Assembly: GCF_002278925.1 (NCBI RefSeq)
Contig: NZ_NCJH01000003.1
Span: 96,042 to 160,041 of the forward strand
Source: Polaromonas sp. 39-63-25
GTDB lineage: Bacteria > Pseudomonadota > Gammaproteobacteria > Burkholderiales > Burkholderiaceae_C
Direction of reading: 5' to 3'
DNA: 64,000 nucleotides
A program made the position numbers and the translations under genes. The notes under the pieces were generated by a model. It was not told where the DNA came from, searched no databases, and saw nothing but the letters and a program-made list of their open reading frames with translations. This document shows positions 13,432 to 63,873 of this stretch, piece after piece (position 1 is the first letter of the stretch; every line of letters starts with the position of its first letter).

Positions 13432-14120
13432 CGTACCGAAATCCGCAGCTGCACCGTCAGCGTCGAGCGGGTTGTCGACTGCGCGTTGTTGAACAAGCCG
13501 GCACTGCTGTCGTTGCTGTCCTCCTCCGACTGGGCCACGGTCACCCACTCGTTGAGCGGCGCAACCAGCGTTGTCACCACGCGGGAATCGGTGGGTGGCG
13601 AAGTCGCGCTGCGTGGGCTTGACACGGCGGCCAGTTCCAGCTCGGCGCTGTCGCCGCCGCGCCAGAACGGCCTGGCCGCAAAACCGCTGCCGGCGTTCAT
13701 CAGCACCGTGGCGCTGCCGTAACGCACGATTCCGTTTTGCACAAAGCTGTGCAGCAGTCGCACAGGGACGCTGTTGCCCAGCAGGATGTTGGCGCTGCGG
13801 CCGTTCAATACCAGCAAGCGCTGGGTCACGTCGCCCGACCCGGTTCGCTGGCCGCTTTGCGCGTCGATGTGGACATCGCCTCCAGAATGGCCGGGCTGCA
13901 TGCGCACCGTGCCGCCGGCGCCCAAGGTGTTCCGGGACGCGCTGCTGTCCCGCAGCTGGCGTACCTCAATTTGCAGATTGCGCGTCGGCAAGGGCGCCTG
14001 GTTTACTATCAAATCAGGAGCTGATTGCGCCCGTGCAACAAGGGCTGGAGCCATAAAAAGCACCGCAAACAGGGCCGAAACGGCGTGTGAGCGGCAAACA
14101 GGCATGGCGCGGGCTGTCAT
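13428..14120 (-). CDS. Secreted protein resembling a minimal secretin/NolW-type core
   Basis: Signal peptide, then 'NLQIEVRQ', 'QRLLVLNGRSANILLGNSVP', 'GSGFAARP', 'VTTLVAPLNEWVTV', which echo secretin C-domain strands; no N-domains. Confidence 0.6.
   Translation of the reverse strand: MTARAMPVCRSHAVSALFAVLFMAPALVARAQSAPDLIVNQAPLPTRNLQIEVRQLRDSSASRNTLGAGGTVRMQPGHSGGDVHIDAQSGQRTGSGDVTQRLLVLNGRSANILLGNSVPVRLLHSFVQNGIVRYGSATVLMNAGSGFAARPFWRGGDSAELELAAVSSPRSATSPPTDSRVVTTLVAPLNEWVTVAQSEEDSNDSSAGLFNNAQSTTRSTLTVQLRISVR
14005..14060 (+). repeat. Family B repeat, antisense and in frame inside the secretin-like gene
   Basis: ACTATCAAATCAGGAGC-tgatt-GCGC-N11-GGGCTGGAGCC; the reverse strand encodes FMAPALVARAQSAPDLIV. 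Confidence 0.85.
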
Positions 14121-14602
14121 GGTGTCTTGTCTGACAAGTGGCCCAGCGGCAGCACGCTGCTGGACTTGATCTCGCCCAGGGAAAAGCTGGTGTGCATGTC
14201 CTTCACATTGGGCAGGTTCAGCAGGCTTTTCAGGGCGAAGCGCGAGAAGCTGTCGAGGTCGCGGGCCACCACCTGCAACTCGAAAGTTCCGGTGCCGCTG
14301 ATGTAGTGACAGGCGATGATCTCAGGCAATTTGCGGATCGCCTCTTCCATCGCGCTGGTCGCATCGCCGGTGTTGCGGTCGGCGTCCAGGCGCACAAAAG
14401 CCAGCACACCCAGGCCGATCTTGTGGCGGTCGATCTCCGCGCGGTAACCCTTGATGAAGCCACCTTCCTCCAGGGCCCTGACGCGTCGCCAGCAGGGGGC
14501 GGCGCTCAGGCCGACGCGGGTGCTGAGTTCGGCGTTACTCAAGCGCCCGTCGGTCTGCAATTCATTCAGGATCGCGAGGTCAAACTTGTCGAGTGTTTCC
14601 AT
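14117..14602 (-). CDS. Lrp/AsnC-family transcriptional regulator
   Basis: 'LDKFDLAILNELQTDGRLSNAELSTRVGLSAAPCWRRVRALEE'; start ATG 14602; divergent from IOR. Confidence 0.95.
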   Translation of the reverse strand: METLDKFDLAILNELQTDGRLSNAELSTRVGLSAAPCWRRVRALEEGGFIKGYRAEIDRHKIGLGVLAFVRLDADRNTGDATSAMEEAIRKLPEIIACHYISGTGTFELQVVARDLDSFSRFALKSLLNLPNVKDMHTSFSLGEIKSSSVLPLGHLSDKTP

Positions 14603-14613
14603 AATTGGCAATT

Positions 14614-14634
14614 TTAAGCAAGAATCTTGCTTAA
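14614..14634. promoter_or_regulatory. Perfect 10-1-10 palindrome TTAAGCAAGA-A-TCTTGCTTAA, candidate Lrp-type operator
   Basis: Read directly from the sequence; lies 12 bp upstream of the Lrp start in the Lrp/IOR divergent region. Confidence 0.6.
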
Positions 14635-14779
14635 GGCGAGTTAAACAAGGCATAAAAAGCAAAGACTTATCTGGCCATCGCGCCTACACTTTGCTCCTAT
14701 ATAGAGGCATCACCCTATCCGGGTGTGAGCCTCTTCGCGCTGCCCAAAAGGCGGTGTCAGCCCCACGACTGGAGACAAG

Positions 14780-24310: not shown

Positions 24311-24339
24311 TCGCCAGCGCGGTGAGGAGCCTTCTTTAC

Positions 24340-24430
24340 CAGCAGGGGCCGCGGGTCCGGCTGTGCCGGCCCGCAGGCGCAGCGCCCCCTCGGGGGGCAG
24401 CGAGCTACACGCAGTGAGCGAACGTGGGGG
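24340..24430 (+). repeat. Family A palindromic dispersed repeat, copy 1
   Basis: ...GCAGCGCCCCCTCGGGGGGCAGCGAGCTACACGCAGTGAGCGAACGTGGGGG; near-identical to 28156, 40273 and 49761. Confidence 0.92.
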
Positions 24431-24432
24431 CT

Positions 24433-24957
24433 CTAATGCGCCACGCGGAAGTCCGCGTCGTCGCAGAGTTCGTCCAGGACCAGTGCATCGGGCTCTTCGC
24501 CAAAGCTCCAGTACACCATCAGCACAATGATCTTGAGGTCGTCCAGCGCAAGGGGGTCTCCCGGTGCGGCCATTGCCCGGTCGATCACGATTTCCCGCAT
24601 GTGGGATGGCAGCACACCCGAAGACTCCAGGAAACTGACGAAGCCCAGGGCCTGGGCGCCGAGGTGGTCCTGCTCTGCCACTGAATAAACACGCAGGCTG
24701 CCGGCCGACTGGGGCTGGAAGCCCGGCGGTGTGGTGGCCGTTGCGGGGACAGGGGGGGCGCTGGCCGGTGATGCGGCAGGCATACCAACCTGGGTGTTCT
24801 GCGCGGCGATGTTCAGGCCGTTGAGCCAGACCAGCGCCGCCTGGATCTCGTCGGCCTCAAAACCGACCGCCGTGAGTTTGCGGCTCAGCTGGTGCAACTC
24901 GGGGCAGGCGTCGCCTTGCCAGTAATTTTCGTAAACGTACACCAGTACTTCAAACAT
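24433..24957 (-). CDS. smg: Smg/DUF494 family protein
   Basis: 'MFEVLVYVYENYW...LTAVGFEADEI..AL.WL', 'REIVIDRAMA', 'LKIIVLMVYW'; downstream of dprA. Confidence 0.9.
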   Translation of the reverse strand: MFEVLVYVYENYWQGDACPELHQLSRKLTAVGFEADEIQAALVWLNGLNIAAQNTQVGMPAASPASAPPVPATATTPPGFQPQSAGSLRVYSVAEQDHLGAQALGFVSFLESSGVLPSHMREIVIDRAMAAPGDPLALDDLKIIVLMVYWSFGEEPDALVLDELCDDADFRVAH

Positions 24958-25036: not shown

Positions 25037-26158
25037 TCAACCCCTCGCCATGCGCTGAAATAGCCCGCCCTGCAGCCTGGCAACCTCCCCGGCCATCTCC
25101 AGCGCCAGCAGACGGGCCTGTAATTCGGCGGTTGCCAACCCGGTGCGCGCCTGCAGGGCGTCGAGGCTGACGGGCTCGTACCCCATCGCCGCAAACAGCG
25201 GGTCGTCTGCAGGCTGTCCGTCCGCATCCGGTTCTGCGGTCAAGGCAGTCGAAAGCTGAGGCAGGTTCAACTCTTCCAGCACGTCCTGGGCGGACTCGAC
25301 CAGCTTGGCGCCCTGTTTGATGAGGGCGTGGCAGCCCCGCGACTGGGGGGAGTGGATGGAGCCGGGGATGGCAAACACCTCCTTGCCCTGTTCCGCGGCC
25401 AGGCGCGCGGTGATGAGCGAGCCCGACTTGAGCGCCGCTTCGACGACCAGCGTGCCTTGGGACAGACCGGAGATCAGGCGGTTGCGCTTCGGGAAGTTGG
25501 CGGTGAGGGGCGGTGTGCCCAGCGGGAATTCGCTGATGACCAGGCCATTTTCAGCAATGCGGTGAGCCAGCGCCAGGTGCTGCTTCGGATACACCCGGTC
25601 CAGCCCGGTGCCGACCACGGCCAGGGTGGTGCCGCCGCCGAGCAGGGCGCCGTCGTGAGCTGCGCCGTCCACGCCGAGCGCCAGCCCCGACACCACACAG
25701 AGACCGGCTTCACCGAACACCCAGGCAAATTGCCGGGCATTGCTTTCCCCCTGCGGCGTCGGGTTCCGGCTGCCCACGATAGCGAGGCAGGGAGCTGCGC
25801 TATTGATAGCTGCCGGCGCCCAGGGATCGAGGGATCCAAGCATATAAAGCATGGAAGGTGGGTCTTCGATGTCGAGCAGCGCGGGCGGGTAGCCGGCATC
25901 GCCCAGCGTCACCACACGCCGGTTGTCGGCGCCCTGCAACCAGTCCAGGGTGGTTTGCAGTTGGGCGGCCAGGGTGGCGGGCTCGGTCAGTAGCGCATCG
26001 GCCAGGCGGTCGGAGCCGAGCTGCCGCAAGGTGCTTGCGTCCTGTTCAAAGATGGCCTGGGCTGACCCGAACGCGGCCAGCAGCTGGCGGGCTCCCGCGT
26101 TGCCGATACCCGGGGTCAGCGACAGGCGCAACCAGGCGCCGAGTTCAGCAACGTCCAT
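25037..26158 (-). CDS. dprA: DNA-processing protein DprA
   Basis: 'AIVGSRNPT', 'VVSGLALGVDGAAH', 'FPKRNRLISGLS', 'GSLITARLAAEQGKEVFAIPGSI'. Confidence 0.96.
   Translation of the reverse strand: MDVAELGAWLRLSLTPGIGNAGARQLLAAFGSAQAIFEQDASTLRQLGSDRLADALLTEPATLAAQLQTTLDWLQGADNRRVVTLGDAGYPPALLDIEDPPSMLYMLGSLDPWAPAAINSAAPCLAIVGSRNPTPQGESNARQFAWVFGEAGLCVVSGLALGVDGAAHDGALLGGGTTLAVVGTGLDRVYPKQHLALAHRIAENGLVISEFPLGTPPLTANFPKRNRLISGLSQGTLVVEAALKSGSLITARLAAEQGKEVFAIPGSIHSPQSRGCHALIKQGAKLVESAQDVLEELNLPQLSTALTAEPDADGQPADDPLFAAMGYEPVSLDALQARTGLATAELQARLLALEMAGEVARLQGGLFQRMARG
25799..25840 (+). repeat. Degenerate family B repeat, antisense inside dprA
   Basis: GCTATTGATAGC-tgccg-GCGC-N11-GGG; same spacing and same antisense frame as the 14005 copy. 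Confidence 0.55.
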
Positions 26159-28148: not shown

Positions 28149-28155
28149 GTACAGT

Positions 28156-28244
28156 CCCCACGCTCGCTCACTGCGTGTAGCTCGCTGCCCCGAGGGGGCG
28201 CTGCGCCTGCGGCCCGGCAAAGCCGGTTCCGCGGCCCCGGCTGG
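28156..28244 (-). repeat. Family A repeat, copy 2 (inverted)
   Basis: CCCCACGCTCGCTCACTGCGTGTAGCTCGCTGCCCCGAGGGGGCGCTGCGCCTGCGGCCCGGCAAAGCCGG, between def and fmt. Confidence 0.92.
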
Positions 28245-28338
28245 TTTGAAGAGAAGTCACGGCGCATCTCCGCCAAGCAGGCCTCTGAAAAATTGGACGG
28301 TCCACTTTTCCAGGCCGGTACTCGGCGAAAATCCTCCG

Positions 28339-30475: not shown

Positions 30476-31669
30476 ATGAAATTCATCCGTTTCTCCGATC
30501 TGTGCGCCCAAGGCCTTGTCAAGGGCCGGCGTGTCTTCATTCGTGCCGACCTCAATGTGCCGCAGGACGATAGCGGCCACATCACCGAGGACACCCGCAT
30601 CCGCGCCTCGATTCCCTGCATCCAGATGGCCCTCGACGCCGGCGCCGCGGTGATGGTGACCTCGCACCTGGGCCGGCCCACCGAAGGGCAGTTCAAACCC
30701 GAAGACTCCCTCGCGCCGGTGGCGCAGCGCCTGGGCGAACTGATGCAGCGTGAGGTGCCGCTGAAGTCCGGCTGGGTCGACGGCGTGGACGTCGCGCCTG
30801 GTGAACTCGTGCTGCTGGAGAACTGCCGCGTCAACCCCGGCGAAAAAAAGAACGACGAGGCGCTGGCGCGCAAGATGGCGGCGCTCTGCGATATTTTTGT
30901 GCACGATGCTTTCGGCACGGCGCACCGCGCCGAAGCCTCGACCTACGGCATCGCGCAGTTTGCCAAAACGGCCTGCGCCGGCCCGCTGCTGGCGGCCGAA
31001 ATGGATGCGATTTCCAAGGCCCTGGCGAATCCGAAGCGCCCGCTGGTCGCCATCGTGGCCGGCAGCAAGGTATCGACCAAGCTGACCATTCTCCAGGCAC
31101 TGGCCGGGAAGGTGGACCAGCTGATTGTGGGCGGCGGCATTGCCAACACCTTCATGCTGGCCAACGGCCTGCCCATCGGTAAAAGCCTGGCGGAACGCGA
31201 ACTGCTCGACGAGGCCCGGGCGGTGATGGCGGCCATGAAGGCGCGCGGCGCCGAGGTGCCTGTTCCGACCGACGTGGTGACCGCCAAGACCTTCAGCGCC
31301 GATGCGCCCGCCACCGTCAAGGCAGCCACCGAGGTGGCGGACGACGACCTGATCCTGGACATCGGCCCACAAACCGCGAAAAAGCTGGCCGATCAGCTGA
31401 TGGCCGCCGGCACCATTGTCTGGAACGGCCCGGTGGGCGTGTTCGAGTTTGCCGCCTTTGAGGGCGGCACGAAAGCCATTGCGCAGGCGATTGCCGCCAG
31501 TCCCGCTTTCAGCATTGCCGGCGGCGGCGATACGCTGGCCGCCATTGCCAAATACGGGATTGAAAAAGACGTGGGCTACATCTCCACCGGCGGCGGCGCC
31601 TTCCTCGAAGTGCTGGAAGGCAAGACCCTGCCGGCGTTCGAGATCCTGCAGAAGCGTGCAGCGGGCTGA
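30476..31669 (+). CDS. pgk: Phosphoglycerate kinase
   Basis: 'RADLNVP', 'SHLGRP', 'DAFGTAHR', 'WNGPVGVFE', 'GGGDT', 'ISTGGGA'. Confidence 0.98.
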
Positions 31670-31684
31670 GCCGGAGCGACATTT

Positions 31685-31746
31685 GCTATTAAAAATATAG
31701 CTCTCTGCGCAATCAGGGCAAGGGGTGGAGGCCGTTTTTGCTTGAA
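31685..31746 (+). repeat. Family B repeat (intergenic copy)
   Basis: GCTATTAAAAATATAGC-tctct-GCGC-N11-GGGGTGGAGGCCGTTTTT. Confidence 0.85.
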
Positions 31747-31784
31747 TTTTTTCGGATCCACGGATAGCTGCCGGGAGTTTGCAG

Positions 31785-32666
31785 ATGACGGATTTTCACG
31801 GTGTTTTTCCTTATCTGGTGTCGCCCATTGACGCCGACGGAGAGGTCAGCGCGCAGGTCCTGACGCGCCTTTGCCAGGACCTGATGGCGGCCGGTGTGCA
31901 TGGCCTGACGCCTCTGGGGTCGACCGGCGAATTTGCCTACCTCAACCCGGCGCAGCGGCGCCGGGTGGTGGAGGTGGTGGTGCAGGCCGCCGGCCGCCGG
32001 GTTCCGGTGGTGGCCGGTGTGGCGGCCACCACCATCGTCGACGCCGTCGGTCAGGCCCGGGAGTACGAACGTATGGGCTGCGACGGCATCCTGGCGGTGC
32101 TGGAAGCGTATTTCCCTGTGGACGACGAAGGTGTCTACCAGTACTTCAAGGCAATTGCCGATGCCGTGTCGCTGCCAGTGGTGATCTACACCAATCCGAA
32201 TTTCCAGCGCTCCGACCTCAAGCTGCCGGTCATCGAGCGGCTCAGCCACATTCCCAACATCCGTTATATCAAGGACGCTTCCTTCAACACCGGGCGCCTG
32301 CTGTCGATCATGAATGTGGTCGAGGGCCGAATGGAGGTTTTCGCCGCGTCGTCGCACGTGCCTGCGACCGTCATGCTGATGGGCGGCGCGGGCTGGATGG
32401 CCGGGCCTGCCTGCCTGGTTCCCCGGCAGAGCATCGCGCTGTACGAGCTGTGTCGGGCCGGCCGCTGGAGCGAGGCCATGGCCTTGCAGCGCAGGCTCTG
32501 GAGCATCAACCAGGTGTTTGCCACCTTCAACCTGGCGGCCTGCATCAAGGCCGGCCTTGTGCTGCAGGGGTATGAGGTCGGCCATCCCTTGGCCCCGCAA
32601 GCACCGTTGTCGCCGGAGGGTGTGGAAACCGTGCGTCGGGTCCTGCACGAACTGGGCGCGCTGTAG
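31785..32666 (+). CDS. DapA/NanA-superfamily class I aldolase (orphan)
   Basis: 'GSTGEF', Tyr in 'VVIYTNP', Schiff-base Lys in 'YIKDAS'. Confidence 0.88.
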
Positions 32667-40366: not shown

Positions 40367-41902
40367 TTAATTTGCTTTGAGCGCCCGCCGGTACTGCACC
40401 GCCTCGGCCACGTGGGTGAGCTGCACCGACTGCGCACCGGCCAGGTCGGCGATGGTGCGTGCCACTTTCAGGCAGCGGTGGATGCTGCGTCCCGACCAGC
40501 CTAGGCGCGCGGCCGCCGTGTTCAGAAATTTCGCTGCGGCATCGTCGAGCTGGCACTGCGCATCAATGGCCTTGCCCTGCAAGGCCTGGTTGCTGCTGCC
40601 CTGGCGCGCCGTGGCGCGTTCACGCGCCGCAACTACCCGTTGCCGGATGCTGGCCGTGCTTTCGCCTGGTGCGGCGCCCAGCAATTCCTCGGCGGCCAGT
40701 GCTCCCACTTCCACATGCAGGTCAATCCGGTCCAGCAGCGGGCCGCTGAGTTTGCCCTGGTAACGCGAGACCTGGTCCGGCGAGCAGCGGCAGGCACGCA
40801 GGCTGGAGCCGAGGTAGCCGCAGGGGCAGGGGTTCATGGCAGCGATCAGCTGGAAGCGGGCCGGAAACTCGGCGCGCCGGGCGGCGCGCGAGATCGTGAT
40901 GGTGCCCGACTCCAGCGGTTCGCGCAGGGCTTCCAGCGCGGCTCGCGGAAATTCCGGGAGTTCATCGAGGAATAAAACGCCATGGTGCGCCAGTGAAATT
41001 TCACCAGGCCGGGGCGGTGAGCCCCCGCCGACCAGGGCCACGGCGCTGGCGGTATGGTGCGGGGCGGCGGTGGGCCGGACTGCCCAGCTGTTCAGCGAAA
41101 AGCGGCCGCCGAGCGAGGCGACGGCTGCGCTTTCGAGCGCTTCGGCTGTGCTCATGGCCGGCAGCAGGCCGGCAAAACGCTGGGCCAGCATGGACTTGCC
41201 CGAACCCGGCGCGCCCACCATCAGCAGGCTGTGGCCGCCAGCGGCGGCAATCTCCAGTGCGCGCTTGGCCGCCGCCTGCCCCTTGACGTCGGACAGGTCC
41301 GGATAAGGGGTGGTGTCCTGCGGGGCGCTGGGCTGGAGCCGGACCCAGCCTTGCGTGTCCTCGGGAATCATGTCGCCCGGCAGAAATTGCCTGACCACGT
41401 CGAGCAGGTGGTGGGCCCGGTAGACCTCGGCATCCGGCACCAGCGCCGCTTCCTCGGCGCTGCCACCCGGCAACACCAGCCGGGGTCGGGGCTGACCGGT
41501 GTCCCGGCCTGGCAGGGCCAGGCTCATGGCCAGGGCGCCGCGTATGGGACGCAACTCCCCGCCCAGCGACAGCTCGCCGGCAAACTCGTAGCCTGCGAGC
41601 TTGGCGGTGTCGATCTGGCCACTGGCCGCCAGAATGCCCAGCGCAATAGGCAGATCGAATCGGCCAGAGTCCTTGGGCAGGTCGGCCGGTGCCAGGTTCA
41701 CGGTGATGCGTTTGTTGCCGGGAAACTCCAGGCCGGTGTTCTGGATGGCAGACCGCACCCGCTCACGGGCTTCCTTGACCTCTGTCTCCGCAAGGCCCAC
41801 GAGCGTGAAACTTGGCAGGCCGTTGGCCAGGTGCACTTCGACGCAGACCGGGTGCGCCTGCATACCCAGCAAGGCACGGCTCTGCACTAAAGATAAGCTC
41901 AT
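40367..41902 (-). CDS. comM: YifB/ComM Mg-chelatase-like AAA+ ATPase
   Basis: 'VNLAPADLPKDSGRFDLPIA', Walker A 'GAPGSGKS', 'PGEISLAHHGVLFLDELPEF', 'AMNPCPCG'. Confidence 0.93.
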   Translation of the reverse strand: MSLSLVQSRALLGMQAHPVCVEVHLANGLPSFTLVGLAETEVKEARERVRSAIQNTGLEFPGNKRITVNLAPADLPKDSGRFDLPIALGILAASGQIDTAKLAGYEFAGELSLGGELRPIRGALAMSLALPGRDTGQPRPRLVLPGGSAEEAALVPDAEVYRAHHLLDVVRQFLPGDMIPEDTQGWVRLQPSAPQDTTPYPDLSDVKGQAAAKRALEIAAAGGHSLLMVGAPGSGKSMLAQRFAGLLPAMSTAEALESAAVASLGGRFSLNSWAVRPTAAPHHTASAVALVGGGSPPRPGEISLAHHGVLFLDELPEFPRAALEALREPLESGTITISRAARRAEFPARFQLIAAMNPCPCGYLGSSLRACRCSPDQVSRYQGKLSGPLLDRIDLHVEVGALAAEELLGAAPGESTASIRQRVVAARERATARQGSSNQALQGKAIDAQCQLDDAAAKFLNTAAARLGWSGRSIHRCLKVARTIADLAGAQSVQLTHVAEAVQYRRALKAN

Positions 41903-45834: not shown

Positions 45835-46763
45835 GCTGGACGACCACGGTTGCGCAGCCCAGCGAACTGGGCGAATCGCCGTTCTGGCACCCCGACGAGC
45901 AGCTGCTTTACTGGGTCGATATTGCGGGTAAAAAAATTCACCGCAGCAATGTGTTCATGGGCACGGTGGAAAGCTGGGCCATGGCGGCGCCGCATGAGCT
46001 GGAGCCCGGCTGCATCGCACCGGCGCGCAGCGGCGGGCTTGTGGTTGCGCTGCGCGACGGCATCTATCGGGCGCGGACCTGGGGCGGTGCGCTGGAGAAG
46101 CTGGCTGATGCCGCGCACGACCCGCGAACCACCCGCTTCAACGACGGCAAATGTGATCCGCTGGGTCGCTTCTGGGCCGGCACGATCTACGAGCCGCGCG
46201 CTGCGCGCGAAGCGGCGCTGTATTGCCTGGACGGCCGGGCGGGCCACACACCGGCGCTGGTGCGCATGGCCGGCGACGCGACCGTGGGCAACGGCCTGGC
46301 CTGGTCGGCCGACAGCCGGACCCTGTACTGGGCCGACACGACCGGCCATGTCATCCGCGCCTGGGACTGGGACGCCGCCGGCAACACCCTGGCCCGGCAG
46401 CGCGTGTTCCGGCAGTTCCCGCCCAAGCCGCCCGGCTGGCAGGCCGGCATGCCGGGTTATGGCGGCCGACCCGACGGCGCAGCAGTGGACAGCCAGGGCA
46501 ATTACTGGGTGGCCATGTACGAGGGCGGGCGCGTGCTCAAGCTGTCGCCGGGCGGCGAACTGCTGGCCGACATCCCCACCCCCGTGGTGTGCCCGACCAT
46601 GGTGTGTTTTGGCGGCGACGACCTGCAGACGCTGTACCTGACCACGGCGCGTCACGGGCGACCCGCCGCCGAACTCGAAGTACTGCCGCAGTCCGGTTGC
46701 GTGTTTTCCATGCGTGTCGATGTGCCCGGTCTGCCCGTCCATTTTTTCGCGGACGCGGGTTGA
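45831..46763 (+). CDS. SMP-30/gluconolactonase family protein
   Basis: 'LGESPFW', 'RFNDGKCDPLGRFWAG', 'GNGLAWS', 'PDGAAVDSQGNYWVA'. Confidence 0.9.
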   Translation: MSWTTTVAQPSELGESPFWHPDEQLLYWVDIAGKKIHRSNVFMGTVESWAMAAPHELEPGCIAPARSGGLVVALRDGIYRARTWGGALEKLADAAHDPRTTRFNDGKCDPLGRFWAGTIYEPRAAREAALYCLDGRAGHTPALVRMAGDATVGNGLAWSADSRTLYWADTTGHVIRAWDWDAAGNTLARQRVFRQFPPKPPGWQAGMPGYGGRPDGAAVDSQGNYWVAMYEGGRVLKLSPGGELLADIPTPVVCPTMVCFGGDDLQTLYLTTARHGRPAAELEVLPQSGCVFSMRVDVPGLPVHFFADAG

Positions 46764-46839
46764 AGCCCCCAAAAAAGCGAACAGCCGCCGTTCAAAAATA
46801 TCAACCCCGGCCGACCGGCGTCCCCTTACCATCAGCACC

Positions 46840-47937
46840 ATGGACTCAGCGCTTCAATTGATCATCGACCAGGTGCAGGCGGCAGCCGCCAGCGGCACGC
46901 CACTGCGCATCCGCGGCGGCGGCAGCAAGGACTTCTACGGCCAGACGCTGCAGGGCGAGGTGCTGGATGTCACGCCGCTGGCGGGCATCACCAGTTACGA
47001 GCCCACCGAACTGGTGGTCACCGCGCGGGCCGGCACGCCGCTGGCCGAGCTCGAGGCGGTGCTGGCGGAACGCGGCCAGTGCCTGCCTTTCGAGCCGCCC
47101 CACTTCGGGCCGGGCGCCACGGTGGGGGGCATGGTTGCAGCCGGCCTGAGCGGCCCGGCGCGCGCCAGTGTGGGTGCCGTGCGCGACTACGTGCTGGGCG
47201 TCACCCTGCTCAACGGCAAGGGCGAGTTGCTGACCTTCGGCGGTCAGGTCATGAAAAACGTGGCGGGTTACGACGTCTCCCGGCTGATGGCGGGTGCCAT
47301 GGGCACACTGGGGCTGCTCACGGAAATCAGCCTCAAGGTGTTGCCGGTGGCGCCAGCCGAAGCCACGCTGAAGTTCGGAATGAGCCAGTCAGAGGCCCTG
47401 GCAAAGTTGAACAGCTGGGGCGGGCAGCCGCTGCCGCTCAACGCCAGCTGCTGGGTCGACGACGCCGGTGCCCCCACCCTGTACCTGCGTTTGCGCGGCG
47501 CCGTCGCAGCGGTCGAGGCCGCCTGCAAAACACTGGGCGGCGAGCGCCAGGACAATGCCGCGACGGCACCCGACTGGACCTTGTGCCGCGACCAGCAGTT
47601 GCCGTGGTTTCTGGAGCGCGGCGAGCAGGACTTGTGGCGGCTGTCGGTGCCGCAGACCGCACCGGTGCTGGACCTGCCCGAGCCGCCGCTGGTCGAATGG
47701 CACGGGGCGCAGCGCTGGGTGCGGGCTGCCGCCGGTGAGGCGCAGCGCCTGCGCGATGCTGCTGCGGCTGTTGGCGGAAGCGCTACGCTTTTCATAGCTG
47801 ATGGCGCTCATGTGGAAAGGGCTGAGGGCCGATTTGACCCCTTGAAGCCACCTCTGGACCGGATTCACCGCCAGCTCAAGAAAGAGTTCGATCCCTCCGG
47901 GATTTTCAATCGCGGCCGCCTCTACCCGGACTTCTGA
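46840..47937 (+). CDS. glcE: Glycolate oxidase FAD-binding subunit
   Basis: 'GGGSKDFYG', 'YEPTELVVTARAGT', 'GGQVMKNVAGYDVSRL'. Confidence 0.93.
   Translation: MDSALQLIIDQVQAAAASGTPLRIRGGGSKDFYGQTLQGEVLDVTPLAGITSYEPTELVVTARAGTPLAELEAVLAERGQCLPFEPPHFGPGATVGGMVAAGLSGPARASVGAVRDYVLGVTLLNGKGELLTFGGQVMKNVAGYDVSRLMAGAMGTLGLLTEISLKVLPVAPAEATLKFGMSQSEALAKLNSWGGQPLPLNASCWVDDAGAPTLYLRLRGAVAAVEAACKTLGGERQDNAATAPDWTLCRDQQLPWFLERGEQDLWRLSVPQTAPVLDLPEPPLVEWHGAQRWVRAAAGEAQRLRDAAAAVGGSATLFIADGAHVERAEGRFDPLKPPLDRIHRQLKKEFDPSGIFNRGRLYPDF
47782..47846 (+). repeat. Family B repeat read in frame inside glcE
   Basis: GCTACGCTTTTCATAGC-tgatg-GCGC-N11-GGGCTGAGGGCCGATTTG; encodes ATLFIADGAHVERAEGRFD. Confidence 0.85.
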
Positions 47938-49163
47938 TGCAAACCCACCTCGCCCCCGAATTCAAGAACACCGCCGACGGCCAGGCGGCCGAGGCGATTT
48001 TGCGCAAATGTGTGCACTGCGGTTTCTGCACTGCGACCTGCCCGACCTACCAGCTGCTCGGTGACGAACTCGACGGCCCGCGCGGGCGCATCTACCTGAT
48101 CAAGCAGGTGCTCGAAGGCCAGGCGCCGACGCGCAAGACCCAGCTGCATCTGGACCGCTGCCTGACCTGCCGCAATTGCGAGACCACCTGCCCCAGCGGC
48201 GTGCAGTACGGCCACCTGATCGACATCGGCCGCAAGCTGGTCGATGAACGGGTGCCGCGGCCCACTTCCGAGAGCGTGGTGCGCTGGGCGCTGAAGGAAG
48301 GCTTGCCGTCACCGCTGTTTGCACCGGCCATGAAACTCGGTCAGGCCGTGCGTGGCCTGTTGCCGGCGGCGCTGAAGAACAAGGTGCCCGCGCGCCAGCC
48401 GGCGGGCCAGTGGCCGCAGCGTGAACACGCCCGCAAGATGCTGATGCTGGCCGGTTGCGTGCAGCCCGCCATGATGCCCAACATCAACACCGCGACGGCG
48501 CGTGTGCTCGACGCGGCGGGCATCCAGACCGTGGTGGCAGCCAAGGCCGGCTGCTGTGGCGCGGTGAAGTTTCACCTGAACGACCAGGACGGCGGCAAGG
48601 CCGAGATGCGCCGCAACATCGACGCCTGGTGGCCGCATGTGGAGGCTGGTGTCGAGGCCATCGTCATGAACGCCTCGGGCTGCGGCGTCACCGTCAAGGA
48701 GTACGGTTACCACTTGCAGGACGATGCGGCGTATGCGGCCAAGGCGGCGCGTATCAGCGAACTGACGCGCGACCTGAGCGAGCTGCTGCCCGAACTGGTG
48801 GCGTCGCTGCGCGGCCGGGTGGCCGCCAGCGCTGCGCCTATCGCGTTTCATCCGCCTTGCACGCTGCAGCACGGCCAGCAGCTGCGCGGCGGTGTTGAGC
48901 AACACCTGGGCGCCCTGGGTTTCGACGTGAAGGTCGCCAGCTGCGAAGCGCATCTGTGCTGCGGTTCGGCCGGCACCTACTCCGTGCTGAACCCGGAGAT
49001 CGCCTTCCAGCTGCGCGACCGCAAGCTGGCGAATCTGGGCGAGATGGCGCCCGAGGTGATTGTGTCGGCCAACATCGGCTGCATCACGCACCTGCAAAGC
49101 GGCACGGCCACGCCGGTGCGGCACTGGATCGAAGTGCTCGACGAGGCGCTATCAAATAAATAG
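47937..49163 (+). CDS. glcF: Glycolate oxidase iron-sulfur subunit
   Basis: 'CVHCGFCTATCP', 'CLTCRNCETTCP', two CCG domains. Confidence 0.95.
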   Translation: MQTHLAPEFKNTADGQAAEAILRKCVHCGFCTATCPTYQLLGDELDGPRGRIYLIKQVLEGQAPTRKTQLHLDRCLTCRNCETTCPSGVQYGHLIDIGRKLVDERVPRPTSESVVRWALKEGLPSPLFAPAMKLGQAVRGLLPAALKNKVPARQPAGQWPQREHARKMLMLAGCVQPAMMPNINTATARVLDAAGIQTVVAAKAGCCGAVKFHLNDQDGGKAEMRRNIDAWWPHVEAGVEAIVMNASGCGVTVKEYGYHLQDDAAYAAKAARISELTRDLSELLPELVASLRGRVAASAAPIAFHPPCTLQHGQQLRGGVEQHLGALGFDVKVASCEAHLCCGSAGTYSVLNPEIAFQLRDRKLANLGEMAPEVIVSANIGCITHLQSGTATPVRHWIEVLDEALSNK

Positions 49164-49210
49164 CTGCTTGCGCCCGTCCATCAAGGGCTGAAGGCAACTT
49201 TCTTCTGAAA
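49148..49210 (+). repeat. Family B repeat supplying the glcF C-terminus and stop codon
   Basis: GCTATCAAATAAATAGC-tgctt-GCGC-N11-GGGCTGAAGGC; TAG at 49161-63 lies in the repeat head. Confidence 0.88.
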
Positions 49211-49696
49211 TCAGGCGGCCAGCGCAGCTTCCACGTCTTTCGCCAGGTCGGCCGGTTTGTCGGTCGGTGCATAACGCCGGATCACCTGACCGTCCTTGCC
49301 GACCAGGAACTTGGTGAAGTTCCACTTGATGGCCTTGCTGCCCAGCAGGCCGGGCGCTTCGGACGACAGCCACTTGTACAGCGGGTGCGCGGCCGGGCCG
49401 TTGACGTCGATCTTGCCCATCATTGGAAAACTCACGCCATAGTTGACCTGGCAGAACTCGGCAATCTCGCCGTCGGCGCCCGGGTCCTGGGAGCCGAACT
49501 GGTTGCAGGGGAAACCCAGCACCACCAGGCCCTTGCCGGTGTAGGCCTTGTGCAGCTCTTCAAGGCCGCCGAACTGCGGCGTGAAGCCGCATTGGCTGGC
49601 CGTGTTCACGATCAGCATGACCTTGCCCTTGAATTGCGAAAGCGCAATGTCCTGGCCGTTGATCTGCCGGGCTTCGAAGTCGTAAATGCTGCTCAT
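49211..49696 (-). CDS. Glutathione peroxidase family (Cys-type)
   Basis: 'NTASQCGFTPQ', 'GFPCNQF', 'KWNFTKFL'. Confidence 0.94.
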   Translation of the reverse strand: MSSIYDFEARQINGQDIALSQFKGKVMLIVNTASQCGFTPQFGGLEELHKAYTGKGLVVLGFPCNQFGSQDPGADGEIAEFCQVNYGVSFPMMGKIDVNGPAAHPLYKWLSSEAPGLLGSKAIKWNFTKFLVGKDGQVIRRYAPTDKPADLAKDVEAALAA

Positions 49697-49760: not shown

Positions 49761-49832
49761 GCCGGGCCGCCCCGAGGAAAAATGCGCCCCCTCGGGGGGC
49801 AGAGAGCTACGCGCAGCGAGCGAACGTGGGGG
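49761..49832 (+). repeat. Family A repeat, copy 4 (variant left module)
   Basis: Shares GCCCCCTCGGGGGGCAGAGAGCTACGCGCAGCGAGCGAACGTGGGGG; left part is GGGCCGCCCCGAGGAAAAAT instead. Confidence 0.85.
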
Positions 49833-50756
49833 TTATTTCTGCGGCGCGGGAGCCAGCGCTGCCAGCGCGGCGGCCAGCACAATCAGGCTGCCGCCCAGCA
49901 GCGTGCGCGGGCTGAATTCCGCTGCGCCCAGTGCGGCCGCCGACAGGCTGGCAAACAGAATTTCGGTCAGCATCACGAGTGCGGTGGTGCTGGCCGCCAG
50001 GCGCGCCGCGCCATACTGCAGCGCCATGTTGCTGAGCAGGAAGGCCACAGCCAGGCCCAGCGCGACGCCGGCCCACGAGGTGCTCCAGACCGGCGCCGGC
50101 ACGGTGTGCCAGGCCATGCCCAGCAATGCGGTGGCAGTGGCCATGAGGCCGCCACCGCCAAACATGGCCATCATGCGTGATTCACTGGGCGTGTACGCCA
50201 GCTTGCGCAGCAGCACGTTGGTGGCGGCAAAACTCAGGCCACCCATCAGGGCCAGCCAGTCGGCGGCACTGTGCGGCACCGGCCAGGGCGAGTCCGGCGA
50301 TTTCAGCACGATCAGCACACCTGCCATCGCCAGCACCAGGCGCAGCAGCGAAGCGCGGGTCGGTTTTTCTCCCAGCAGGCCCCAGGCCAGCAGCACGGAC
50401 CACGCCGGCATCAGGTAAAACAGCAGCACCACCCGAACCACGTCCCCGACGGTCACGGCCCAGTTGAAGCCGACGTTGGTCAGCCCGGCGGCGACGGCCA
50501 GCCACCAGAGCTGCGGATGCCGCGCGAAGCTGCGCCAGCCGCCGGGCCGCCATGCCGAGATGCAGGCCAGCGAAAAGAAGTAGATCAGCGCGGTGGACCA
50601 CAGGGGGTGCAGCCCCTGCGACTGCAGCTCGCGAAACGGCCACCAGGACACGCCCCAGACAAAGGCGTTGAAGACCAGTGCCGATGCGGCCAGGGCGGCG
50701 CCACGGGGGGTCACGGCTTTCGGCTCCGCGGGACCACGGCCTGGCCGCATGTCCAT
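49833..50756 (-). CDS. EamA/DMT-family transporter
   Basis: Ten hydrophobic segments, 'VVLLFYLMPAWSVLLAWGLLGEK'. Confidence 0.88.
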   Translation of the reverse strand: MDMRPGRGPAEPKAVTPRGAALAASALVFNAFVWGVSWWPFRELQSQGLHPLWSTALIYFFSLACISAWRPGGWRSFARHPQLWWLAVAAGLTNVGFNWAVTVGDVVRVVLLFYLMPAWSVLLAWGLLGEKPTRASLLRLVLAMAGVLIVLKSPDSPWPVPHSAADWLALMGGLSFAATNVLLRKLAYTPSESRMMAMFGGGGLMATATALLGMAWHTVPAPVWSTSWAGVALGLAVAFLLSNMALQYGAARLAASTTALVMLTEILFASLSAAALGAAEFSPRTLLGGSLIVLAAALAALAPAPQK

Positions 50757-54268: not shown

Positions 54269-55260
54269 GGGTACAGCCCATGAACACGGGCGTGCAGGCG
54301 CGCCAGGCCGAGCAGCGCGTCGGTGAAGGGGGTGGGTACCTGCGTCAGTTTGCCCAGTTCCTTCACCACGGTGACCAGGGCGTCGAGCTCGACCGCCTTG
54401 CCGGCTTCCACGTCCTGCAGCATGGAGGTTTTGAAGGCGCCGAGCTTGAGTGTCACCGCGTGCCGGTCTTCCGGCTGCTGGGCGATCGGGATGCCGATGC
54501 GTGCGCCTATCTCTTTGGCTTCGAGCATGATCTTCGAGATGAAATCGCGCACCAGCTCGTCGCCGAGGATGCGGTCGGTGGTGGCGCCGGTGAAGGCGCT
54601 GATCGGATTGACCGTCATGTTGCCCCAGAGTTTGTACCAGGCGTCTTTCTGGATCTGCGCCGACACGCTGGCCGCAAAGCCGGCGCGCACCAGCAGCTCC
54701 GCCAGCGCCTGCACACGTGGGCTCTGCGCGCCCGAAGGCTCGCCGATGATGAGGCCGTTGCCGAAATGGTGGCGAATCACGCCGGGTGCATCGACCGAGC
54801 AACTCGCATGCACCACACAGCCGATGATGTTCGCCGCCGGAATGGCCGCGGCAATCTCGCCGGTGGCGTCCACCGCTTTCAGTTGTGTGCCGGCGTAGGG
54901 GCCGCCAAAACCCTGGAAGAACCACCAGGGCACGCCGTTCATCGCTGTCAGGACGAGGGTGTCGGGGCCGATGAGCGGTGCGATCTGGCGTGCCACGTCG
55001 AGCAGTGCGGGTGCTTTCACCGCGATGACCACCAGGTCCTGCACGCCCAGCGCGGCCGGGTCGGCGCTGGTTTGCACGGCCGCGGAGTGGATGTCTGTTC
55101 CGCTTGCCACACGCAGGCCGTGGCGGTTCAGCGCTTCCAGCGTTGCGCCACGCGCCACCACGCTAACGCTGCAGCCTGCCGCCGCGAGTCCGGCGCCTAT
55201 CCAGCCACCGATGGCACCGGCGCCGTAGATACACGCTTTGTTGATGGTTTTATGAGTCAT
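54265..55260 (-). CDS. PanE/ApbA-family NAD(P)-dependent reductase
   Basis: 'GAGAIGG', 'AMNGVPWWFF', 'KLWGNMTVNP', 'KTSMLQDVEAGKAVE'. Confidence 0.88.
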   Translation of the reverse strand: MTHKTINKACIYGAGAIGGWIGAGLAAAGCSVSVVARGATLEALNRHGLRVASGTDIHSAAVQTSADPAALGVQDLVVIAVKAPALLDVARQIAPLIGPDTLVLTAMNGVPWWFFQGFGGPYAGTQLKAVDATGEIAAAIPAANIIGCVVHASCSVDAPGVIRHHFGNGLIIGEPSGAQSPRVQALAELLVRAGFAASVSAQIQKDAWYKLWGNMTVNPISAFTGATTDRILGDELVRDFISKIMLEAKEIGARIGIPIAQQPEDRHAVTLKLGAFKTSMLQDVEAGKAVELDALVTVVKELGKLTQVPTPFTDALLGLARLHARVHGLYP

Positions 55261-55312
55261 TTTGGCTTCCAGCCCTTTGTTGACGCGCGCAAGGCGCTCT
55301 AGTTTTGATAGC
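55250..55312 (-). repeat. Family B repeat supplying the aldolase stop and the PanE-like start
   Basis: Minus strand: GCTATCAAAACTAGAGC-gcctt-GCGC-N11-GGGCTGGAAGCCAAAATGACTC. Confidence 0.85.
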
Positions 55313-56069
55313 TGTTGTCGATCCGGTCGACCTGCCGCACCAGCGCGTCAAAGACATCCTGGCCGGCGCCGTAGGCCGGCTGGAACTGCAGCGCGTCGCG
55401 CGTGGATTTCTGCGCCACGGCTTCTGTCACCGCAATCGCCGGGCCCATGCTGAAGGTGGCCAGCTGGATTTCGCAGGCACGCTGCAACGTCCACAAAATG
55501 GCAAAGGTCTGCGGCAGGGCGTGGCCCCAGGTCAGCAGGCCGTGGTTGCGCAAGATCACTGCCTGCCGCGTGCCGATGTTGTTGACCAGGCGCGGGCCTT
55601 CCTCGGCGTGGATGGTGATGCCTTCGAAGTCGTGGTAGGCCACCTTGTCATGCAGCTGGGCCGTGTAGAAGTTGGTCTGCTGCAGGCCGCCCTGCAGGCA
55701 GGCGACCGCCACGCCGGCGGTGGTGTGGGTGTGCATCACGCAGTGCGCATCGGGCAGGCCGTCATGAATCGCCGCATGCACGGTGAAACCGGCCGGATTG
55801 ACCCGGTGTGTCGAGCCGTCCAGCACCTTGCCCTGCAGGTCGATCTTCACCAGGTTGGAAGCGGTGACTTCGCTGTAGTGCAGGCCGAAGGGGTTGATCA
55901 GAAACTGCTTGTTCCCACCGGTGACGCTGTCCGGCAGCCGCACCGTGATGTGGTTGTAGATCATCTCGGTCCAGCCGAGCATGGCAAACACGCGGTAACA
56001 GGCGGCCAGCTCGACGCGGGTTTTCCATTCGTCGGGATGTATCCCGGGTTTTTGCAGGACGGCGTTCAT
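55299..56069 (-). CDS. Class II aldolase/adducin family protein
   Basis: 'YNHITVR', 'LINPFG', 'HAAIH', 'MHTHT', 'LRNHG' metal-binding pattern. Confidence 0.9.
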   Translation of the reverse strand: MNAVLQKPGIHPDEWKTRVELAACYRVFAMLGWTEMIYNHITVRLPDSVTGGNKQFLINPFGLHYSEVTASNLVKIDLQGKVLDGSTHRVNPAGFTVHAAIHDGLPDAHCVMHTHTTAGVAVACLQGGLQQTNFYTAQLHDKVAYHDFEGITIHAEEGPRLVNNIGTRQAVILRNHGLLTWGHALPQTFAILWTLQRACEIQLATFSMGPAIAVTEAVAQKSTRDALQFQPAYGAGQDVFDALVRQVDRIDNSYQN

Positions 56070-62323: not shown

Positions 62324-62339
62324 ATTTAATATATTAAAT
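62324..62339. promoter_or_regulatory. Perfect palindrome ATTTAATATATTAAAT, putative HpaR operator
   Basis: 16-bp perfect inverted repeat 16 bp upstream of the hpaR start; AT-rich MarR-type site. Confidence 0.75.
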
Positions 62340-62413
62340 GATTTGAAGCTTGCTGCCAGCCGCGCGAGGCCGGGACTAACCCGCACTGTGAATAAATACA
62401 GTAATATCGCCGG

Positions 62414-63781
62414 ATGGCCAAAGACAAGACGATTTACACCTGCACCGAGTGCGGCGGCACCAGCCCCAAATGGCTGGGCAAATGCCCGCATTGCGGGGCC
62501 TGGAACACGCTGATCGAGTCGATTGCCGAAAGCCAGTCGCCGGTGAAAAACCGTTTTGCCTCGCTGGCCAAACCGTCGGAAGTGGCGACCCTGGCCGACA
62601 TCGAGGCCACCGACATGGCGCGTACGCCCACCGGGCATGAGGAGCTGGACCGTGTTCTGGGCGGCGGCATTGTCGAAGGCGGCGTGGTGCTGATAGGCGG
62701 CGATCCCGGCATCGGCAAGTCCACGCTGCTGCTGCAGGCCCTCGATTCCCTGCAGCGCGCCGGCCTCGACACTCTGTATGTGACCGGCGAGGAAAGCGGC
62801 GCTCAGGTGGCGCTGCGCTCGCGCCGGCTCGGGCTGGACGGCTCTCAGGTCAAGGTGCTGGCCGAGATCCAGCTCGAAAAAATCCTCGCCACGCTGGAGG
62901 CCACGCGGCCGGCCGTGGCCGTGATCGATTCCATCCAGACCGTGTATTCCGAGCAACTCACGTCGGCGCCGGGCTCGGTCGCCCAGGTGCGCGAATGTGC
63001 TGCCCACCTGACGCGCGCCGCCAAGTCCAGCGGCGTCTGCATCATCCTGGTCGGTCACGTGACCAAGGAAGGCGCACTGGCCGGCCCGCGCGTGCTCGAA
63101 CACATGGTCGATACCGTGCTCTATTTCGAGGGCGACACGCATTCGAGTTTTCGTCTGGTGCGCGCGATCAAGAACCGTTTCGGCGCGGTCAACGAGATCG
63201 GTGTGTTCGCCATGACCGAAAAAGGCCTCAAGGGCGTGAGCAACCCCAGCGCGATTTTTCTGAGCCAGCACGCCGAGCCGGTGCCGGGCAGCTGTGTGCT
63301 GGTCACGCTCGAAGGCACGCGCCCGCTGCTGGTGGAAATCCAGGCGCTGGTCGACAGCGGCGGCCCCAGCCCGCGTCGCCTGTCGGTGGGCCTGGACCGG
63401 GATCGGCTGGCGATGCTGCTGGCGGTGCTGCACCGCCACGCCGGCATTGCCTGCATGGACCAGGACGTATTTGTCAACGCGGTCGGCGGTGTGCGCATCA
63501 GCGAGCCGGCGGCCGATCTGTCGGTGATGCTGGCGATCACTTCCAGCCTGCGCGGCAAGCCGTTGCCCAAAGGCTTCATCGCTTTCGGCGAGGTCGGCCT
63601 GGCCGGCGAGGTGCGGCCCGCGCCGCGCGGCCAGGAGCGGCTCAAGGAAGCGGCCAAACTGGGCTTCAGTGTGGCCGTGGTGCCCAAGGCCAATGCGCCC
63701 AAGAAGCCGATCGAAGGTTTGACCATCCATGCGGTCGAACGCGTGGAGCAGGCGATCGAGGTGGTGCGAAGCCTCGCGTAG
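62414..63781 (+). CDS. radA: DNA repair protein RadA/Sms
   Basis: C4 zinc finger 'CTECG...KCPHCG', 'GDPGIGKST', 'KNRFG', Lon-like C-domain. Confidence 0.97.
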   Translation: MAKDKTIYTCTECGGTSPKWLGKCPHCGAWNTLIESIAESQSPVKNRFASLAKPSEVATLADIEATDMARTPTGHEELDRVLGGGIVEGGVVLIGGDPGIGKSTLLLQALDSLQRAGLDTLYVTGEESGAQVALRSRRLGLDGSQVKVLAEIQLEKILATLEATRPAVAVIDSIQTVYSEQLTSAPGSVAQVRECAAHLTRAAKSSGVCIILVGHVTKEGALAGPRVLEHMVDTVLYFEGDTHSSFRLVRAIKNRFGAVNEIGVFAMTEKGLKGVSNPSAIFLSQHAEPVPGSCVLVTLEGTRPLLVEIQALVDSGGPSPRRLSVGLDRDRLAMLLAVLHRHAGIACMDQDVFVNAVGGVRISEPAADLSVMLAITSSLRGKPLPKGFIAFGEVGLAGEVRPAPRGQERLKEAAKLGFSVAVVPKANAPKKPIEGLTIHAVERVEQAIEVVRSLA

Positions 63782-63811
63782 CGGGATTCACCTCGGTGCG
63801 GCGGATGGAGC

Positions 63812-63873
63812 GCTATTAAATCAGTAGCTGTTGGCGCCCTCTCCATCTGGGCTGAAGGCCGATTTTTCTTGAA
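63812..63873 (+). repeat. Family B repeat (intergenic copy)
   Basis: GCTATTAAATCAGTAGC-tgttg-GCGC-N11-GGGCTGAAGGCCGATTTTT. Confidence 0.88.

Follow-up and report, generated by a model that had tools for sequence, protein, structure and literature searches.

Family B copies in the window

The window analysed here, a stretch of 64,000 nt from Polaromonas sp. 39-63-25 (assembly GCF_002278925.1, contig NZ_NCJH01000003.1, positions 96,042 to 160,041 of the forward strand), carries six copies of a short dispersed repeat, designated family B, in and beside genes that include pgk, glcE, glcF, panE and radA/sms. A reading of the sequence alone (the sequence-only reading) had placed clear copies at 14005, 31685, 47782, 49148, 55250-55312 (minus strand) and 63812, and degenerate ones at 25799 and possibly 39677. 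The six clear copies are borne out by a spaced pattern and by an independent profile, and are listed below with their profile E-values, followed by the degenerate candidate at 25799.

14003..14066, plus strand: family B copy (E 3.3e-13), antisense in the 5' end of a 230-aa open reading frame (13428-14120, minus strand)
31683..31746, plus strand: family B copy (E 2.7e-11), intergenic, 14 nt after the pgk stop (31669)
47780..47846, plus strand: 5'-truncated family B copy (E 1.3e-7; profile match 47792-47842), in glcE
49146..49210, plus strand: family B copy (E 2.3e-15), filling the entire spacer between glcF and the glutathione peroxidase (GSHPx) gene
55250..55314, minus strand: family B copy (E 3.4e-10), between a class II aldolase gene and panE
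63810..63875, plus strand: family B copy (E 1.5e-14), intergenic, 29 nt after the radA/sms stop (63781)
25799..25860, plus strand: claimed degenerate copy, not supported (E 0.27, 10.7 bits, partial match), antisense in dprA

With at most 3 mismatches allowed, the spaced pattern GCTAYN8RAGCN5GCGCN11GGGBTGRRGSC matches the 64-kb window at exactly 14005+, 31685+, 47782+, 49148+, 55265-55312(-) and 63812+ (6 matches, against 0.01 in shuffles), and the six copies align with fixed spacing. This pattern was derived from the same six copies, and the independent test is a profile hidden Markov model (HMM; nhmmer) trained on 116 copies from other genomes, which in a search of 1.8 Mb recovers all six, the weakest being the glcE copy. 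The degenerate copies do not stand: at 39677 the profile finds no match even at E <= 10, and the dprA candidate, besides lacking a significant DNA match, corresponds to about 4 extra residues relative to the solved DprA structure 3maj, not to about 20. The copies are indeed AT-richer than their surroundings, with a GC content of 0.45-0.55 against 0.62-0.67 in the flanks and 0.65 in the window as a whole.

Abundance and taxonomic range

The prediction of many further genomic copies holds. A scan of 185,579 species genomes with the pattern CTATYAAA-N5-AGC-N5-GCGC-N11-GGGCTG returned at least 116 loci, and the matches listed are nearly all from Comamonadaceae, with Polaromonas dominant and Rhodoferax, Acidovorax, Diaphorobacter, Ramlibacter, Curvibacter, Hylemonella, Ottowia and Paenacidovorax also represented; a few metagenome-assembled genomes (MAGs) among them bear labels outside the family. 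Across 1.42 Mb of collected loci the profile finds 198 copies at E < 0.01. In the 845 kb of seed loci there are 51 non-seed copies at E < 1e-3, or about 1 per 16 kb, and the window holds one copy per 11 kb; the overall density, approximately one per 10-16 kb, suggests, as a rough estimate, a few hundred copies per genome. Matches occur in only 5 of 72,556 plasmids, all from Comamonadaceae. Family B is thus a real and abundant dispersed repeat family, not a chance similarity.

Structure of the repeat unit

Across the 116 copies, information content is zero upstream of position -4 and fades past about +63, and the family B unit is therefore some 62-66 bp long, with a sharp 5' edge. Its consensus runs tTG CTATYAAAtnaRTAGC TGCTT GCGC N11 GGGCT(G/A) GAGGCC GATTTnnCTTGAAA, with an A/T tail, and GGGCTAGAGGCC is a frequent variant among non-seed copies. 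The arms of a first hairpin, GCTAY-N7-RTAGC (hairpin 1), can pair, and its 3' arm yields the tetranucleotide (A/G)TAG: columns 12-15, which adjoin the long stem on its 5' side, are ATAG in 58% of copies and GTAG in 36%, the AG at 14-15 being imposed by the search pattern. After hairpin 1 comes an imperfect palindrome, CTGCTTGCGC - N11 - GGGCTGGAGGC, in which positions 15-25 face positions 37-47 with three fixed mismatches and two G-T pairs. The tail, GATTT..TTGAAA, mirrors the A-rich loop of hairpin 1 (ATTTGA in the tail, TCAAAT near the 5' end), a correspondence that is short and without covariation. The consensus as a whole folds into a single long imperfect hairpin. Hairpin 1 was also considered by eye as a binding site for IHF, and this was rejected: the WATCAA part fits and the TTR part does not.

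The N11 segment is not random and divides into subfamilies. In it, 50 non-orthologous pairs of copies differ at no more than 2 positions, where 7.8 such pairs are expected and 200 shuffles give at most 17; the largest cluster has the consensus GCGCTTGT-TGG-ACAAGGGC, a hairpin with 7 of 8 positions paired. Other palindromic forms, among them CAGGT-ATT-ACCTG, CACGT-AAT-ACGTG and CCCG-CTGGA-CGGG, occur in individual copies. Stems extended by at least 3 pairs number 23, against 13.8 expected, a value that 3 of 500 shuffles reach; among non-seed copies alone the enrichment is not significant (12 against 8.6), and the first variable pair already fails to form in 61% of copies. An apparently covarying N11 hairpin picked out by eye was partly cherry-picking, and is rescued only by the analysis of subfamilies. 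The pattern is read here as the probable legacy of several founder variants: each had a good hairpin, and their descendants have decayed since.

Placement relative to genes

Genes were called with a codon-usage script, which places stops exactly and starts approximately, and context was counted for the 173 copies lying away from locus ends. Most of these (84%) are intergenic, and 16% (27/173) fall within predicted coding sequences. The spacers that harbour copies are convergent in 38 cases, divergent in 11, and co-oriented in 43 and 44 for the two orientations of the copy. On either side, a copy lies a median of about 12 nt from the neighbouring stop codon and about 75 nt from a neighbouring start, and many upstream genes (distances -17 to -13) have their stop within the loop of hairpin 1. 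These counts and stop distances tie family B to gene 3' ends and show it to be indifferent to the direction of transcription. Relative to GC skew, copies have a weak orientation bias toward the G-rich strand (53:30, p 0.015, with loci that are not independent).

No terminator-like site was called at the copies at 47782, 49148, 55312 and 63812, and the totals of the terminator scan were no higher than in shuffles. Likewise, a promoter scan called nothing at the copies and gave totals not above those of shuffles, and a search of Rfam 15 (4227 families) gave no match for the copies at gathering score and chance-level matches only at E <= 10. At the right end of the unit, the GGAGG of the right block often precedes the start codon of the gene downstream by 6-10 nt, and in the panE copy of the window (55258-55275) it reads GGAAG. 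Judging from this spacing, the family B unit can probably serve as a ready-made ribosome-binding site.

Copies of the window in their gene context

The copy at 14003 is read antisense in a 230-aa protein that the sequence-only reading had called secretin-like, and for which no Pfam match was found. It encodes residues ~18-40 (FAVLFMAPALVARAQSAPDLIVN), that is, the hydrophobic core and the A-x-A site (ARA followed by Q) of a predicted signal peptide, and GC content at third codon positions (GC3) is 0.36 in its codons against 0.82 elsewhere in the gene (p 1.5e-5). Orthologues down to 42% identity all have a signal peptide of like length; one of them, 72% identical, retains the 5' half of the copy (E 4e-6), and that of Polaromonas sp. 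JS666 (CP000316) has no copy inside the gene. A partial copy, TTGCTATGAAATTAGTAGC, stands in the same orientation some 65-85 nt upstream of the start codon in JS666 (locus L203, 2918-2937), which may preserve the arrangement that preceded the recruitment of a spacer copy as a signal peptide. The arrangement in the window fits such a recruitment, in which a spacer copy would have become a replacement signal peptide.

The copy in glcE, which covers profile positions 14-64, reads in frame 0 as ...F IADGAHVERAEGRFDPLK..., i.e. FIADGAHVERAEGRFDPLK, and makes up residues ~318-336 of a 365-aa protein that is 95-100% identical to other Polaromonas proteins. Its blocks are kept in three other Polaromonas, with varying N11 codons, and are decayed in one Burkholderiales MAG. 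The GlcE of Ramlibacter has a loop of identical length, written in GC-rich codons without DNA similarity to the copy, and that of E. coli is 7 residues shorter. For the codons of the copy GC3 is 0.53, compared with 0.85 in the rest of glcE (p 0.0014). The glcE copy is a family member and not a chance match, yet not a simple insertion. Neither it nor the 14003 copy is a simple 60-nt insertion, because the repeat-less GlcE of Ramlibacter and the orthologous signal peptides have the same length. Repeat-less orthologues of equal length occur for both proteins; chance similarity, which the sequence-only reading would have concluded from orthologues equal in both length and sequence, is nevertheless excluded by the profile E-values and by the sharp drop in GC3 within the copies.

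Two further observations concern glcE. Its longest open reading frame is over-extended (46714-46839), starting 42 codons before the MDSALQ start conserved in all orthologues and overlapping the preceding gene; such over-extended frames are common in GC-rich DNA. Furthermore, some Polaromonas GlcE proteins (locus L119, 10001-11161, 386 aa; P0017, P0050, P0075) contain after residue ~92 an in-frame insert of 63 nt or 21 aa, ATRSEPLGEGLTESGSTAGSA, which is absent from the window, is flanked by GCCACC...GCGACC, and has only short word matches with family A, a GC-rich repeat described below. This insert may be a third small element within a gene.

The copy at 49146 supplies the final codons of glcF, ending ..EALSNK, and its TAG stop (49161-49163) within hairpin 1, and at its other end abuts the stop of the convergent GSHPx gene (49211). 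Relatives without a copy at the end of glcF finish in ..ALG or ..ALD. An equivalent copy lies beside GSHPx in L119 and L120, and beside glcF in L118. The gene content between glcF and GSHPx varies among relatives (49146-49213 compared with L118-L122), the genes concerned being EVE, WYL, LytTR, acyltransferase, glyoxalase and GyrI-like; in Polaromonas a family B copy lies at the junction of gene content each time, and Ramlibacter and another Burkholderiales MAG have a fuller gene set and no copy. The repeat at this place marks a hotspot of gene gain and loss.

Between the aldolase gene and panE, the former ends ..YQN with its TAG (55301-55299) in the loop of hairpin 1, and the ATG of PanE (55260-55258) lies in the tail of the copy, 6 nt after the GGAAG of the right block; the orthologous locus L037 has the same arrangement. 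From the end of the copy at 31683 it is about 38 nt to the ATG of the following gene, which Pfam assigns to the DHDPS family, and the copy at 63810 has an orthologous copy in L113. Of the earlier claims of translation, those for glcE (sense), the 230-aa frame (antisense), the glcF end and the aldolase/PanE junction stand, and that for dprA does not.

Contigs of sediment metatranscriptomes, from related strains of about 95% identity, extend from pgk across the repeat and into the following gene (window 31555-32300). They are compatible with read-through; being directionless and possibly containing DNA, they are uninformative on termination. Elsewhere in the window, a riboswitch of the SAH family (Rfam RF01057; 52.4 bits, gathering score 37) occupies 37312-37405 on the plus strand, directly upstream of a cobalamin-dependent methionine synthase gene (37443-40250, 935 aa).

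Coding copies in other genomes

That some copies are read as protein, in the manner of Rickettsia palindromic elements, is supported, the clearest case outside the window being TrmJ. Of the 27 copies in predicted coding sequences, 23 are in sense orientation, and once orthologues are collapsed they represent at least 12 independent sense events in two frames. The frame CTA-TCA-AAN accounts for 8 events and gives xLSKxELLAPxxxGLEAD(F/L), in TrmJ, XdhA, XdhB, AroE, HyuA, MurE, an EamA-like protein and an FAD protein; it needs G and not T at position 13, because TAG would stop the frame. The frame GCT-ATC-AAA accounts for the other 4, in GlcE, LD-carboxypeptidase, UvrA and a DctP-type signal peptide. 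The N-terminus MxxxAIKxIAACA...GA of several periplasmic proteins is encoded by a copy (L011, L013, L089, L112), and in antisense the loop provides the start codon in L041, L087 and L102. As copies occupy very short spacers and can be read through in two sense frames, some of them now supply stop codons, a Shine-Dalgarno-like GGAGG with a start codon, signal peptides in either orientation, and surface loops.

The effect on protein length differs among these cases. TrmJ is about 20 residues longer than the solved E. coli TrmJ, exactly at the copy, and AroE is 9 residues longer at the copy than a solved structure. In hyuA, a partial copy causes no change in length relative to orthologues and homologues that lack it. 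A trmJ allele without the insert was sought among the 120 best matches, and the segment was kept in all 15 of the 15 aligned orthologues.

Conservation at orthologous sites

Flank-to-flank BLAST comparisons of all loci yielded dozens of orthologous pairs, and in essentially all of them the spacing corresponds to a full unit in both genomes, including pairs whose flanks are only 73-80% identical. Copies today are thus essentially fixed, occupying the same orthologous places across species and genera, for the most part no farther than about 10-20 nt from a stop codon. The earlier statement that the repeat invades coding sequences is not supported as a description of current activity, orthologous comparisons being filled on both sides and contigs of related strains showing no empty form.

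The site downstream of pgk was followed in 80 metagenome loci gathered regardless of the repeat, of which 67 had enough downstream sequence. Of the 67, 11 have a family B copy after the pgk stop, oriented as in the window, and so does one Rhodoferax genome; several further copies look decayed by eye, and several copy-less loci have a classical terminator at this place. No clean empty/filled pair was found among the 80 loci, and related-strain contigs in four DNA metagenomes showed no form skipping a copy. Many metagenome contigs match only a 48-nt core (49148-49195) and then diverge; since they diverge beyond the core, they represent other family members.

Origin and maintenance of family B

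The reading preferred here, at a probability of roughly 0.55, is that family B is an ancient, non-autonomous dispersed element of the Comamonadaceae, of the repetitive extragenic palindromic (REP) or MITE (miniature inverted-repeat transposable element) type, now largely fixed and with some copies exapted. The general REP/MITE-like character put forward by the sequence-only reading is supported. A copy-and-paste origin is argued for by the N11 subfamilies, the sharp edge of the unit, the palindromic founders and the segment of about 20 aa gained by TrmJ, and the amplification would be very old because no polymorphism is seen. Whole units would have been copied in several waves, giving rise to the subfamilies, by a trans-acting enzyme that recognises the DNA hairpin and that would most plausibly be a RAYT or an IS200/IS605-type HUH transposase. 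Copies would survive at gene 3' ends, where insertion harms least, and might act there as weak terminators, 3'-end stabilisers or protein-binding sites. The copying enzyme, the target rule and any present function are what we infer.

Several results weigh against this reading. No empty site, target-site duplication or insertion polymorphism was found, either in the flank comparisons of all loci or in the contigs of related strains. The absence of a cognate transposase from the window, already remarked upon in the sequence-only reading, extends to the collected loci: tblastn with E. coli RayT over the window and 1.4 Mb of loci, a small part of any genome, found no real RAYT-like gene, the lone match being spurious and on the antisense strand of a hemerythrin gene. 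No parent insertion sequence with the same ends turned up in the collected loci either, where no dedicated search for one was made. Copies are mostly single and not in inverted pairs, with one close inverted pair (L079) in 41 multi-copy loci. Column-wise covariation is absent from hairpin 1, from the long stem and from the loop and tail, observed pairing equalling that expected, and folds of single copies are no more stable than those of shuffles (z-scores of about -1.3 to +0.8). Furthermore, the glcE and signal-peptide copies replace native sequence without change of length, which simple insertion does not explain, and at orthologous sites the blocks survive while the spacer and N11 are randomised, which suggests selection on each copy.

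This last point is the main ground for a host function as a serious, though distinctly less probable, alternative, in which each copy would be a working site under purifying selection and a mobile origin would be past or irrelevant. Such a site could be bound by a nucleoid or topology protein, much as E. coli BIMEs bind IHF and gyrase, or its A-tract, imperfect stem and T-tract could form a weak bidirectional terminator or 3'-end stabiliser. The blocks are near-identical between the pgk copy of the window and L123, with 97% PGK identity and a randomised 14-nt spacer and N11, and again at the rph/rdgB junction in three genomes, and they are retained even in glcE despite the rare codons that they impose there. 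Copies lie near stop codons in either orientation and avoid divergent spacers, several lineages without a copy after pgk bear a canonical terminator there, and in L016 and L137/138 the tail is the 5' arm of a terminator hairpin. Block conservation is, however, exaggerated by ascertainment, since the pattern and the profile detect only copies with intact blocks, and orthologous copies are visibly eroding within the blocks in L119 and L120 (beside GSHPx), L124, L136 and L148 (after pgk). Moreover, 51 of the 67 pgk loci have no detectable copy, none of the copies in the window was called terminator-like or folds exceptionally, and the RNA-library contigs cross the pgk copy into the next gene. Host function is kept beside mobile origin on the strength of block conservation, tempered by ascertainment and by the eroding copies.

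A family of structured RNAs, whether small RNA genes or 3'-UTR elements acting as RNA, is very unlikely. Two hairpins can be drawn, the G-T pairs of the long stem work on the plus strand only, the GGAGG block could bind ribosomes or, in antisense, mask Shine-Dalgarno sequences, and the pgk copy is covered by RNA-library contigs; yet none of the 4227 Rfam families matches above chance level even at E <= 10, no columns covary in any register, copies have no preferred orientation towards their flanking genes (43 against 44), fold z-scores range from -0.7 to +0.8, and no promoter or terminator is conserved. Equally improbable is a templated patch conversion, or an uptake-and-recombination drive comparable to that of uptake signal sequences, by which coding sequence would be overwritten at the same length. 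It would account for the partial copies in glcE, the 230-aa signal peptide and hyuA, none of which changes length, and for a family that is orientation-independent, lineage-confined and rare on plasmids. Against it, a motif of ~50 nt cannot arise through point mutation, conversion in the absence of flanking homology has no known mechanism, length is gained in TrmJ (+20 aa) and AroE (+9 aa), and a density of one per 10-16 kb is far sparser than that of uptake sequences; a simpler account is that length was restored by a later in-frame deletion or a shifted start codon. A broader proposition, only slightly less doubtful, is that the unit is a working sequence under selection at the nucleotide level that replaces coding sequence patchwise at equal length, as in the glcE loop, the signal peptide and hyuA; if true, it would require a mechanism of templated conversion or of drive for which bacterial repeats offer no described precedent. 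Under the preferred origin as an ancient mobile element, same-length replacement inside genes and block conservation at orthologous sites are left unexplained.

Family B deserves a name, and a working profile for it is now available. It occupies hundreds of short spacers in a large group of environmental bacteria that includes Polaromonas, Rhodoferax, Acidovorax and Curvibacter, where annotators otherwise misplace starts and stops at copies and their odd codon usage may pass for horizontal transfer. It also provides natural cases, in free-living bacteria, of a non-coding repeat becoming a signal peptide (in either orientation), a C-terminus, a ribosome-binding site or an enzyme loop, which are useful for studying the origin of new peptide segments. 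Lastly, the conservation of blocks against randomised spacers at orthologous sites is a concrete and testable hint of function.

Relationship to known bacterial repeats

Family B shares its genomes with another repeat, BRE, found in Bordetella and Comamonadaceae, which is 75-91 bp long, 69% GC and often tandem, with a core GCCCCCTCGGGGGGCAGC...CGTGGGGG (PMC3110155). BRE has 29 copies in Polaromonas sp. JS666, mostly intergenic, with some overlapping the ends of open reading frames or wholly coding (PMC3110155), and in this it resembles family B, as it does in having no assigned function. Family B is nevertheless not BRE: its GC content is 0.45-0.55, its sequence differs from the GC-rich GCCCCCTCGGGGGG core, and in the published BRE list GCTATCAAA occurs 0 times and CCCTCGGGG 23 times (PMC3110155). 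The window does contain a GC-rich repeat of about 100 nt, family A, with a core GCCCCCTCGGGGGGCAGCGAGCTACACGCAGTGAGCGAACGTGGGGGC, at 24338-24437, 28150-28245 (inverted), 40274-40371 and 49786-49839, the last with a terminator-like hairpin on the minus strand; family A matches the published Bordetella BRE sequences (GCCCCCTCGGGGGGCAGCAAGC...GCGTGGGGG; PMC3110155).

A trace of family B itself probably exists in the literature. Tong et al. (2017; PMC5217627) reported a motif pair GCTTAT(N)5AAGCG in A. ebreus, with 114 copies (44 convergent, 4 divergent, 59 co-oriented), and a pair ATAGCT(N)22CAAAAG in P. naphthalenivorans, with 125 copies (101 intergenic, 18 in genes). The pairs of that study are 81-94% intergenic and 4-14% in genes, many of them convergent and few divergent, within ~50 bp of gene ends, and are flagged only as statistical "potential novel motifs", with no full element, range, coding copies or structure (PMC5217627). 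Columns 24-39 of family B accommodate the A. ebreus pair: in copies of the Acidovorax type they read GCTTGA-N5-AAGCG, which is one mismatch away. The P. naphthalenivorans CJ2 pair shares ATAGCT with family B; a search of the collected loci for the exact pairs found neither. It is likely that these motif pairs are identical with family B. A literature search found no account of the whole element, its range or its coding copies, an absence that is no proof, and family B has apparently been noticed earlier only as an anonymous motif pair.

The Correia/NEMIS elements of Neisseria and the ERIC/IRU elements of enterobacteria are likewise small palindromic dispersed repeats that give promoters, terminators and processing sites and are occasionally coding. 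They differ, however, in their length of ~100-160 bp and their clear terminal inverted repeats, to which Correia adds TA target duplications.

Closer parallels are offered by the RAYT-mobilised REP/BIME/REPIN sequences of E. coli and Pseudomonas. Like family B, these are short and extragenic, number in the hundreds per genome, gather mostly at gene 3' ends and in convergent spacers, are lineage-specific, and keep stable orthologous positions; an imperfect palindrome with a variable loop after a conserved (A/G)TAG is a possible further resemblance. REP sequences are marked by a conserved tetranucleotide of the GT(A/G)G type at the palindrome's foot and by a cognate RAYT gene, typically flanked by REPs. 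By contrast, the palindrome of family B is weak and AT-richer than the genome, its copies are single and not inverted pairs, it has an extra 5' hairpin, an A/T tail and 16% coding copies, and no RAYT was found in the loci searched. In its coding copies, on the other hand, family B recalls the Rickettsia palindromic elements, small palindromic repeats that lie both between genes and in frame and add or replace surface peptide segments. Family B is unrelated to these in sequence, its hosts are free-living, GC-rich Betaproteobacteria, most of its copies are intergenic, several of its coding copies are length-neutral, and its use as signal peptide, stop codon and start codon is prominent. Family B is hence an addition to the known class of small palindromic dispersed repeats, with well-documented exapted coding copies.

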